Assembly: GCA_005882335.1 (NCBI GenBank)
Contig: VBAP01000009.1
Span: 48,303 to 112,302 of the forward strand
From: Candidatus Segetimicrobium genomatis
GTDB taxonomy: Bacteria > Sysuimicrobiota > Sysuimicrobiia > Sysuimicrobiales > Kaftiobacteriaceae
Length of the DNA stretch: 64,000 nt
Direction of reading: 5' to 3'
The notes under the pieces are model-generated. The model ran no database searches. It saw nothing but the letters and a program-made list of their open reading frames with translations, and was not told the origin of the DNA. This document shows, piece by piece, positions 25,773-26,570 of this stretch. Made by a program: the position numbers and the translations under genes. Every line of letters starts with the position of its first letter. Within the stretch, counting starts at the first letter, position 1.

Positions 25773-26048
25773 TCAAAGACATGCACAGTCGCGGAATCTC
25801 CCGCGACCTCCGCCTCCCCCGGCCCCGCTTCTACCACCGCCTCCGCCGCCACCACCCTCTTTGAATCCTCCTGGCGAGGCTCCGTCACGGAATCCTTCCT
25901 CGTATCCCTTATGATATGCTTCGCCTTCTTTCATACCCCCGACAAAGTCGCCGAAGGGCGACGCCATTCTGCGGAGAGGATGCGGCGTGGTCAGCAAAAG
26001 CGCAAGCGACAGCAGCACAGCAGCAGCGATTAGCCATTTCGTTCTCAT
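25773..26048 (-). CDS. small secreted glycine-rich protein ending in FRDCACL
   Basis: A GGGGGAGGTGA SD, signal peptide MRTKWLIAAAVLLSLALLLT, a poly-Gly tract and a C-terminal RDCACL. The ORF-track start at 26096 reads through a hairpin. Confidence 0.5.
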   Translation of the reverse strand: MRTKWLIAAAVLLSLALLLTTPHPLRRMASPFGDFVGGMKEGEAYHKGYEEGFRDGASPGGFKEGGGGGGGGRSGAGGGGGRGRFRDCACL

Positions 26049-26327
26049 CCGGCTCACCTCCCCCTCAGACAGATCCCCGGACCGGCCGCAGGACACGCGC
26101 GCGGCCGGTCCGGGGATACTTGTTCATATCACGCCGGCCATACGCAGGAGCGGCGAGGGGGGTGGTTTCACCGGCTTCTTCCGGCACTCGCGGAGGTTCA
26201 AACGCGGGCACAGCGCCTCAGCTGGCCAGGATGCCAGCAACACCGCCGCCACCACGAAGACGCACAGCGCGACGACAACTCCGTGCCTCACGACACATCA
26301 CCCCTTTTGCTGACAATTCTTCCTACG

Positions 26328-26570
26328 CTAAAGACAGCCGCAGTCTCTGACCCTGCCGCTGCCACCGCCGCTCCCGCGACCGCCGCCGCCCAGAAAGTCG
26401 CGTGCGGCACGCTCGACTTCTCGGATGACCTCAGTGAGTCGCTCGTAGGGACGTGTGACGATCTGTTCAACCTCGGTACGCCCGCCGCCAAACGCCATCG
26501 AAGAGAGCAGCAGCGCCCCCGACGTGGCCATCCAGAACGTGAGCAGAACTGCAACCCCTCTGTTCTTCAT
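26328..26570 (-). CDS. small secreted glycine-rich protein ending in VRDCGCL (paralog of 25773-26048)
   Basis: A GAGGAGGCGGAGG SD, signal peptide MKNRGVAVLLTFWMATSGALLLSSMAF, a Gly-rich tract and a C-terminal RDCGCL. Confidence 0.5.
   Translation of the reverse strand: MKNRGVAVLLTFWMATSGALLLSSMAFGGGRTEVEQIVTRPYERLTEVIREVERAARDFLGGGGRGSGGGSGRVRDCGCL

Follow-up and report, generated by a model that had tools for sequence, protein, structure and literature searches.

A small protein with a conserved C-terminal Cys-x-Cys tail, predicted to be exported, encoded beside glnS in Sysuimicrobiota

Two small open reading frames (ORFs) on the minus strand near glnS in Candidatus Segetimicrobium genomatis end in almost the same residues, and the locus therefore poses the question of what this shared ending does and whether its two carriers belong together. 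The ORFs, called A and B, lie in a 64-kb stretch of contig VBAP01000009.1 (positions 48,303 to 112,302), which as a whole is termed the window and to which all coordinates refer unless another locus is named. The original prediction saw in them a paralogous pair of small secreted proteins, inserted side by side between tRNA-Gln and glnS. We find that B is a real gene under purifying selection and that its C-terminal tail is clearly selected at the protein level. A appears, from its sequence and distribution, to be an accessory and evolutionarily unstable carrier of the same tail on a dissimilar body. The features on which this account depends most are the following.

26328-26570, minus strand: ORF B, 80 aa, with its ATG at 26570
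26573-26585, minus strand: Shine-Dalgarno (SD) region of B, GAGGAGGCGGAGG, kept in all lineages
26590-26680, minus strand: conserved noncoding block 5' of B, seen in alignments of the lineages
25773-26048, minus strand: ORF A, 91 aa, with its ATG at 26048
26054-26064, minus strand: SD of A, GGGGGAGGTGA, 5 nt from the ATG

Both ORFs were placed correctly by the original prediction, each with a strong SD, a hydrophobic N-terminus, a Gly-rich tract and an RDC[AG]CL ending. Contrary to what had been stated, they are not directly adjacent: a 55-aa ORF that was missed at the time, here called M, sits between them. Comparisons used the window and 108 fetched loci (L001-L108), of which L029-L108 are 80 loci from a glnS-anchored scan of species in the Genome Taxonomy Database (GTDB).

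ORF B is a conserved gene

The translation of ORF B is MKNRGVAVLLTFWMATSGALLLSSMAFGGGRTEVEQIVTRPYERLTEVIREVERAARDFLGGGGRGSGGGSGRVRDCGCL. It has been deposited from Candidatus Segetimicrobium genomatis as TMI76863.1 / UniRef100_A0A537J012, under the name "hypothetical protein". Across six lineages, the pairwise ratio of nonsynonymous to synonymous divergence (dN/dS) of B ranges from 0.13 to 0.50, with synonymous divergence (dS) from 0.22 to saturation; the glnS control gives a dN/dS of 0.12. Longer versions of B in the databases (102-133 aa) are upstream mis-starts: in L017 and L022 the SD and the ATG are conserved but the extension is not.

The N-terminus of B consists of a basic n-region and a hydrophobic core of 15 to 20 residues, with a Trp that is invariant across the family. 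A signal-peptidase-type site, S-x-[AT]/F-G (the slash marks the cut), is conserved in all B-type members, and rule-based inspection predicts cleavage of B at SMA/FGGG. B is therefore predicted to be exported and to lose its signal peptide, which would leave a near-neutral mature protein of 54 residues with 9 basic and 8 acidic side chains. Of the two Sec signal peptides proposed originally, that of B is probable, from a rule-based reading of this conserved cut-site pattern, and that of A is doubtful, with an Arg at position -3 of the homologous site.

An amphipathic helix is predicted at about residues 32-61 of B, and the family shares the helix motif ...Y-[ED]-R...[VI]-[IV]-R...R-A-[AV]-R-[DE]... 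within it. The hydrophobic moment of the helix at residues 39-61 is 0.70-0.76. An AlphaFold2 model, built on a shallow alignment of seven sequences, places helices at residues 3-27, 34-37 and 39-61, and leaves the tail (62-80) without secondary structure, the predicted local distance difference test (pLDDT) score falling there to 44-50.

The block upstream of B contains CGCCTGCTG..TGCAGAC..CGCCTATCCT..GAGTTCGCG. It is present in all lineages, including L017 and L022, where a different gene lies upstream. The block matches no Rfam family and gave no match in a consensus sigma-70 scan; we presume that it is a promoter or leader.

The Cys-x-Cys tail

B ends in RVRDCGCL and A in RFRDCACL, in both cases with the stop codon directly after. 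The window and the 108 loci together hold 21,102 six-frame ORFs that are 40 aa or longer; 35 of these end in the pattern [RK][DE]C[AGS]C[LF]-stop, far more than the 0.005 that composition would give by chance. Within the window only A and B carry it, and a separate scan of the unrelated loci L029-L108 found no ORF with the motif.

In the B family the terminus takes the form G-[RK]-x-[RK]-[DE]-C-[GAS]-C-[LF]-stop and is retained down to about 58% identity. All full-length members recovered by profile search end in R[DE]C[GAS]C[LF]. These include the diverged homologues P0009, P0010 and P0011, which keep this sequence at their extreme end; homologues lacking the motif had been named at the outset as what would speak against the proposal. 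The codons of the tail vary synonymously among members and between A and B (AGA/CGC, GAC/GAT/GAG, TGC/TGT, CTT/CTC/TTC), which indicates that selection acts on the peptide. The Gly-rich stretch between helix and tail, on the other hand, differs in length and composition from one member to the next (GGGGRGSGGGSG, GGGRRGGG, GGGSDKGK and GGDRDRRPDGSGHG). B has two Cys in all, both within its last four residues.

A terminus of this kind could be a signal for C-terminal lipidation, anchoring or sorting, similar to CaaX with X = Leu/Phe or to Rab-type CXC, and read by some transferase or processing enzyme. In all members the motif occupies the last four residues, a basic stretch precedes it and the final residue is Leu or Phe; moreover, a tag would be common to two otherwise dissimilar proteins, as is seen for A and B. 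However, the predicted topology puts the tail outside the cytoplasm, and no transmembrane helix follows the motif, unlike the situation in known bacterial sorting signals. Protein prenyltransferases are cytosolic, and we know of no endogenous bacterial system. Neither a prenyltransferase gene nor a CPBP/CAAX-protease gene was found among the window proteins scanned (see below), and two carriers in 64 kb are few for a general tag. We regard such a signal as very unlikely.

Proposed function of B

We tentatively read B as an exported helix-plus-tether protein whose terminal vicinal dithiol would perform thiol-disulfide or soft-metal chemistry outside the cytoplasm, a possibility to which we attach less than even confidence. 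B would be made with a Sec-type signal peptide and then be exported, or at least be anchored in an N-in/C-out orientation. Its amphipathic Arg/Glu-rich helix probably mediates self-association or the binding of a partner, and a disordered Gly/Arg-rich tether of variable length may present the invariant [RK]-x-[RK]-[DE]-Cys-(Gly/Ala/Ser)-Cys-(Leu/Phe)-COOH. The working part would be the tethered dithiol, most likely a "swinging arm" for thiol-disulfide exchange that cycles between the dithiol and a strained, 11-membered CxC disulfide. Alternatively, the tail might chelate a soft metal, for instance Cu(I) or Zn(II). A small middle residue would be needed for the tight turn and would suit either a disulfide ring or bidentate chelation, and the flanking Arg residues would be expected to lower the pKa of the thiols.

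If the tail belonged to another pathway, a partner enzyme might be encoded nearby, and the original prediction had suggested looking for co-occurring modifying enzymes. Pfam scans of about 50 window proteins returned housekeeping functions only. Among them are a two-component system, an ABC transporter for branched-chain amino acids, glutamate dehydrogenase, FtsE/FtsX, an M23 peptidase, an S41 protease, SurE, PRPP synthetase, RF2, SecA, PPDK, GlyS, RecO, Nramp, MgtE, Era and CNNM. Neither these proteins nor the called genes of related loci include an MNIO/DUF692, DUF2063, radical-SAM, YcaO or lanthipeptide enzyme, or a prenyltransferase, CPBP protease, Dsb/thioredoxin-like or copper-resistance gene, and in this set no modifying enzyme thus accompanies B. 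The absence of local maturase and transferase genes offers no pointer to another fate of the tail, and we have counted it in favor of the dithiol.

Several observations weigh against this reading. B is linked at no locus to a gene for thiol redox (Dsb, thioredoxin-like) or metal homeostasis, and its sole recurrent neighbor is a cytoplasmic-looking PNPOx-like gene, which is on the opposite strand and has been lost in two sister groups. The structural model has low confidence overall (mean pLDDT 59), and both export and cleavage of B are inferred from sequence rules only. The codon usage of B is atypical for the genome (0.07 log2 units per codon), which fits low expression. Finally, the residues around the Cys are kept more strictly than a simple dithiol would need; they could form the recognition site of an enzyme encoded elsewhere.

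Such a recognition site would be expected if B were a pro-peptide or the precursor of a ribosomally made, post-translationally modified peptide (RiPP). The C-terminal 6-10 residues would then be the product, either a released signalling peptide or one modified at its Cys, and the helix and linker would act as recognition region and spacer. The conserved surroundings of the Cys do resemble a recognition site, and the combination of signal peptide, variable spacer and invariant extreme C-terminus is that of a precursor. That A shares the tail only is also what a portable core or recognition element would produce, and bufferins establish that Sec-exported RiPP precursors with modified Cys exist (PMC11626156). 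Even so, we consider a precursor unlikely. There is no maturase, protease/transporter or RNPP-receptor gene among the window proteins scanned or in related loci, and B matches neither DUF2282 nor another precursor family. The helix of B is at least as conserved as its tail, which would be unusual for a spacer, and only two Cys are available.

If the tail works as we propose for the tethered dithiol, B would be a very small natural protein that carries out extracytoplasmic thiol or metal chemistry with a helix, a tether and a terminal Cys-x-Cys alone. It would also give a first inroad into the function of an orphan gene from a widespread, uncultivated soil phylum.

Distribution of the B family

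A word-indexed search of 5.8 billion clusters with B returned seven relatives, none of them below 80% identity. Among 1.84 billion 50%-representatives, an exhaustive profile search recovered only seven proteins in all, and three of these are more diverged full-length members with 58-66% identity: P0009 (...GGGRRGGGRARDCSCL), P0010 (...GGGSDKGKTRECGCL) and P0011 (...GGDRDRRPDGSGHGRMRDCACL). Altogether the family comprises about 10 clusters among roughly 15 billion proteins. Every one of these is annotated as hypothetical, and all come from Candidatus Segetimicrobium and its relatives (Sysuimicrobiota, formerly candidate phylum CSP1-3).

Four database "relatives" of B from metagenome assemblies (P0006, P0007, P0008 and P0012) are frameshifted, chimeric or mis-started. 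The C-terminus is altered in some of them, one has an out-of-frame translation from upstream fused to it, and one stems from a deletion in the B/M region. Such database versions inflate the apparent diversity of the family.

The 80 loci of the glnS-anchored scan of GTDB species contain no B-like ORF, no A-like ORF and no tail motif. The closest glnS genes among GTDB species representatives, at 75-81% identity, belong to CSP1-3 or to unclassified metagenome-assembled genomes; nothing B-like lies beside glnS in the five closest of these or in 75 more distant species. A scan of genome contigs with B gave no match, nor did a tblastn search of plasmids and phages. For A, B and M, nothing meaningful was found in Pfam or NCBIfam (E <= 10), PHROGs or PADLOC, and sequence or profile comparison with the PDB yielded only noise from Gly linkers or designed helices. 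For A and B this bears out the original remark that no described family was recognizable. The narrow range of matches and their absence from GTDB glnS loci, plasmids and phages mark B as a taxonomically restricted orphan family. Judging from these searches, the family is undescribed and occurs in a single bacterial family.

ORF A carries the same tail on a different body

The translation of ORF A is MRTKWLIAAAVLLSLALLLTTPHPLRRMASPFGDFVGGMKEGEAYHKGYEEGFRDGASPGGFKEGGGGGGGGRSGAGGGGGRGRFRDCACL. Its hydrophobic N-terminus leads into an acidic/aromatic stretch and then a long poly-Gly tract, with RFRDCACL at the end. When A is compared with the B family by hhalign, only the last 14 residues align (P 2.2e-7), and a BLASTP alignment of A with B covers RDCxCL only. 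The proposed paralogy thus holds for a common architecture and a nearly identical C-terminus; with similarity confined to 14 residues, common descent of the whole proteins is unsupported.

In sister species A is either truncated or missing. In the L025-L028 group, a 71-nt deletion (window 25994-26064) took the SD, the start and the hydrophobic segment of A, and 124 nt replace its C-terminal half together with the entire PNPOx-like gene (25260-25913). What is left of A in this group is 80 nt, without SD, start, signal peptide or tail. In the L007 group, about 22 nt stand in place of all of 25766-26073, and A is absent. A is intact in the window species only, where the ORF is open in all seven available copies. 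Its sole length variant is an in-frame GGC insertion in the poly-Gly tract (L001 and L006).

Whether A is an expressed gene is uncertain. It may be that only B is functional, that A is a decaying or never-established ORF, and that the likeness of the tails is a relic of an old partial duplication in a pair without joint function; we take this possibility seriously, although it falls short of being probable. In addition to its truncation or absence in sister groups, gene finders call A in none of six near-identical contigs. A has no relative in the word-indexed 5.8-billion-cluster protein database, and a translated scan of JGI metagenomes recovered one identical copy and four truncated remnants. 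Its composition is also unusual: the GC content at third codon positions (GC3) is 0.53, compared with 0.80 for glnS and gltX, and AGA accounts for 4 of its 8 Arg codons, compared with 1% of the Arg codons in the long ORFs of the window. The codon log-likelihood of A (-0.16 per codon) is under the 1st percentile of in-frame housekeeping windows. Moreover, A begins 26 nt past a strong, conserved hairpin (described below), which leaves no room for a promoter of its own and makes A dependent on read-through.

Other properties of A speak against this possibility. No available copy is interrupted, the SD is near perfect and ideally spaced from an ATG start, and the frame of A, for all its poor codon score, is the best of the six. 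The single length variant preserves the frame, although this is weak evidence because GGC runs slip in threes anyway. The tail of A has been retained at the protein level with codons unlike those of B, which implies selection after the two tails split, at least in the past.

The occurrence of one tail on two bodies also permits a broader interpretation, which we offer as a speculation with rather low expectations: the tail could be a portable functional module of Sysuimicrobiota, present on a number of unrelated small exported proteins; A and B would be the first two seen. Such a module might be a natural, minimal "tethered CxC" catalyst of disulfide exchange, or else a C-terminal tag of a new kind that is recognized by a machinery for modification or attachment outside the cytoplasm. 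In the former case it would be the biological counterpart of designed CXC peptides that replace protein disulfide isomerase (PDI).

ORF M and the intergenic hairpin

Two further features lie between B and A.

26124-26291, minus strand: ORF M, 55 aa, with a GTG start
26073-26117: GC-rich hairpin between ORFs M and A

ORF M follows B after 36 nt and probably shares its transcript. Its hydrophobic N-terminus is followed by a signal-peptidase-type site, AEA/LC, after which a Pro/Lys-rich mature part of about 29 aa with two Cys is predicted. M has been called as a gene in L001 and L005. Its relatives form three clusters only, all at least 93% identical, and it is limited to the three closest species groups, being disrupted in L026 and absent in L017 and L022. 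We propose that M is a still younger small Cys peptide, putatively exported, in the B transcript.

When the same species are compared, dS is about 0.12 for M, 0.43-0.45 for B and 0.33 for glnS. The first ~100 nt of M are nearly invariant across 11 loci, with two single-locus changes. The low synonymous divergence suggests extra constraint at the nucleotide level or recent exchange.

The hairpin reported in the original prediction is real. It spans 26075-26115 (26073-26117 in the centroid structure) and has a GC stem of 16-18 bp and a 9-nt loop. The minimum free energy is -51.4 kcal/mol in a 101-nt context, with z = -3.25 relative to shuffled sequences. The hairpin is conserved, and one A-U pair has undergone a compensatory change to G-C in a sister species. 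A scan for canonical terminators reported none; it misses the hairpin because there is no T-run. The structure is likely a terminator or 3' stabilizer of the B-M transcript, and in the ancestor it probably served the convergent PNPOx-like gene as well.

B could also be a Sec-dependent peptide of the bacteriocin type, with M as its small immunity or membrane protein: B would be a small exported peptide that combines an amphipathic helix, a Gly-rich region and a C-terminal Cys pair, and a small hydrophobic ORF follows it after 36 nt. Mature B, however, is near neutral, and its helix carries many charges and is not of a membrane-active kind. In L017 and L022, B is conserved but M is missing. In addition, B is inherited vertically beside housekeeping genes and not on a mobile element, and has no plasmid or phage match. 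We give this explanation almost no weight.

In three sister species, then, small ORFs with predicted export signals (A and M) can be seen arising and decaying beside a stable B, which is relevant to the birth and loss of taxonomically restricted genes.

Genomic neighborhood

The flanking genes and ORFs in the window are as follows.

24846-24919, plus strand: tRNA-Gln
25034-25237, plus strand: orphan ORF of 67 aa (MTVRVGTQPGKATEDEY...IPWSAVMGVSLKKR)
25280-25765, plus strand: PNPOx/PPOX-like gene, 161 aa (PF01243, 31.3 bits), convergent with ORF A
26780-28501, plus strand: glnS
28540-30033, minus strand: gltX

Of these, tRNA-Gln, the 67-aa orphan, the PNPOx-like gene and glnS are present as originally described. 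In locus orientation, the order in the window species is glnS-> <-B <-M hairpin <-A PNPOx->. The L007 group has glnS, B, M, the hairpin, a PNPOx remnant, the 67-aa ORF and an AAA_15/AAA_21 ATPase gene. More distant arrangements are glnS<- PNPOx<- B-> <-tRNA-Gln in L017-L019 and gltX-> B-> <-PNPOx in L022, and in L023 the B homologue lies within a run of small ORFs. Variation is found in A, in M, in the PNPOx-like gene and in what separates B from tRNA-Gln.

The original prediction viewed the genes between tRNA-Gln and glnS as an insertion at a tRNA hotspot. The region next to the tRNA gene is indeed plastic, and its tRNA-proximal stretch can be called variable because sister species carry different cargo there. 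B, however, is a constant resident in every relative found, close to glnS/gltX, the PNPOx-like gene and tRNA-Gln in three different orders, which does not support an insertion of B at this place. No integrase and no repeat of a tRNA fragment was seen at the locus. Regarding the cargo, a 529-aa AAA_15/AAA_21 ATPase (11178-12767, minus strand) separates the 67-aa ORF from the tRNA-Gln side in L007, where no tRNA-Gln lies within 3.5 kb, and L027 has a 355-aa exported protein (5560-6627, plus strand) in the corresponding position.

The PNPOx-like gene recurs next to B in diverged relatives, in every case on the strand opposite to B, and has been deleted from two sister groups. It adjoins glnS even in relatives without B (L032 and L033). 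As the two genes are never co-oriented, a functional link between them is not indicated.

Codon scores, in log2 units per codon, are 0.16 for the PNPOx-like gene, -0.16 for A, 0.16 for M and 0.07 for B, compared with a median of 0.53 for 90-codon in-frame housekeeping windows. The whole island from 25280 to 26570, which comprises these four, therefore has less genome-typical codon usage than housekeeping genes. The 67-aa ORF has the best codon score within the island. Its protein is 90-93% identical in the L025-L028 sister group, and the L007 group has the ORF as well; it has no match in Pfam, NCBIfam, PHROG or PADLOC.

In L023, P0011, the most diverged B homologue, is among five co-directional small ORFs without a Pfam match (254-1347, plus strand). 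Several of these have hydrophobic N-termini and Cys pairs, including one of 50 aa ending in SGSCQYQWSD and one of 115 aa ending in LLDGACK.

An Rfam search of 24000-27500 detected tRNA-Gln only, together with sub-threshold hairpin noise, and a tandem-repeat finder reported weak low-complexity repeats in coding regions and nothing else. Elsewhere in the window, 15596-19970 (minus strand) encodes an FtsE-like ABC ATPase, a protein with an FtsX extracellular domain, an M23 peptidase that has a PcsB-type coiled coil, and a CtpB-type S41/PDZ protease. We take this cell-division and wall-hydrolase arrangement to be reminiscent of Bacillota, and presumably it bears on the envelope type of the phylum. 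Three ORFs of 575, 279 and 217 aa (1047-2774, minus strand; 36582-37421, plus strand; 40782-41435, minus strand) have typical GC3 and no Pfam match at E <= 0.001.

Comparison with known systems

Several classes of exported or tagged proteins differ from A, B and M in features that can be read from the sequence. LPXTG, PEP-CTERM and GlyGly-CTERM sorting signals have a transmembrane helix (and a basic tail) after the motif; here nothing comes between the motif, which makes up the last six residues, and the stop codon, and a sorting signal of that type was rejected. Lipoproteins were set aside as well: the lipobox L-[AS]-[GA]-C is lacking, no Cys lies in or just after the signal segment of A or B, and the AEA/LC of M does not fit. 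On inspection of the sequences we also rejected type IV pilins (no G/F-x-x-x-E), twin-arginine signals (no RR), and double-glycine leader, microcin-B17-like (thiazole/oxazole-modified microcin) and methanobactin-like precursors, since a non-hydrophobic leader or neighboring enzymes are lacking.

Eukaryotic CaaX and Rab CXC termini have Cys at -4 and -2, Leu or Phe last and a basic stretch upstream. All members of the B family end in C[GAS]C[LF] and so match this C-terminal form. The eukaryotic system is cytosolic, whereas the B tail is bacterial and predicted to be extracytoplasmic, either in an N-in/C-out protein or in a secreted one.

Phr, PapR and NprX of Bacillota are short pre-pro-peptides with a signal peptide and an active, conserved part at the extreme C-terminus. 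Their genes lie beside an RNPP-family receptor and their pro-regions are not conserved, whereas B has a conserved helix. A pheromone precursor of the RNPP type was rejected, as no Rap/NprR/PlcR/PrgX-type receptor gene lies nearby; the neighbors are glnS, gltX, PNPOx-like, tRNA-Gln, PilZ or glyoxalase genes.

Bufferins are RiPPs whose precursors have Sec signal peptides and modified Cys and which act in the periplasm (PMC11626156). Like B, bufferins (BufA) are small (60-120 aa); they have a Sec-type N-terminus, such as sequence rules predict for B, and their Cys are functionally essential. Their precursors, however, have 4, 6 or 12 Cys, belong to DUF2282 or to a family of their own (BUF_6/12Cys), and always occur with MNIO (DUF692) and DUF2063 partners. 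With two Cys only, no DUF2282 match (Pfam/NCBIfam E <= 10) and no MNIO/DUF2063 among the window proteins scanned or the called genes of related loci, B was rejected as a bufferin precursor.

CopY repressors have C-terminal CxC motifs that act as binding sites for Cu(I) or Zn(II) (PMC10141476). CopY and domain 3 of the copper chaperone CCS resemble B in having Cys-x-Cys near the C-terminus, where it forms a Cu(I)/Zn(II) ligand set in a dimer. These proteins are cytoplasmic, folded and linked to copper genes, whereas B is predicted to be exported, to consist of helix and disorder, and has no metal-homeostasis neighbor.

The closest parallels to the proposed dithiol are redox-active. A CGC tripeptide has a standard redox potential (E0') of -167 mV, which is close to that of PDI, and periplasmic CsgC has a redox-active CxC at -139 mV (PMC3173608). 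B has no detectable sequence or fold relationship to oxidoreductases (Pfam, NCBIfam and PDB sequence search). In fold, B does not appear to resemble oxidoreductases like CsgC or DsbD-N: the AlphaFold2 model consists of helices and a disordered tail, not of an immunoglobulin- or thioredoxin-like domain that carries the Cys pair, and there is no PDB sequence match. In CsgC, unlike B, the CxC is in an immunoglobulin-like fold and has a bulky middle residue. Designed peptides of the form "CXC-linker-retention signal" can replace PDI in yeast (bioRxiv 10.64898/2026.01.27.701630). What CsgC and the designed peptides have in common with B is a vicinal Cys-x-Cys that is able to form a strained disulfide. 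The designed peptides also resemble B in their layout of localization signal, helix or linker and CXC, with the difference that their CxC is N-terminal and that of B is C-terminal.

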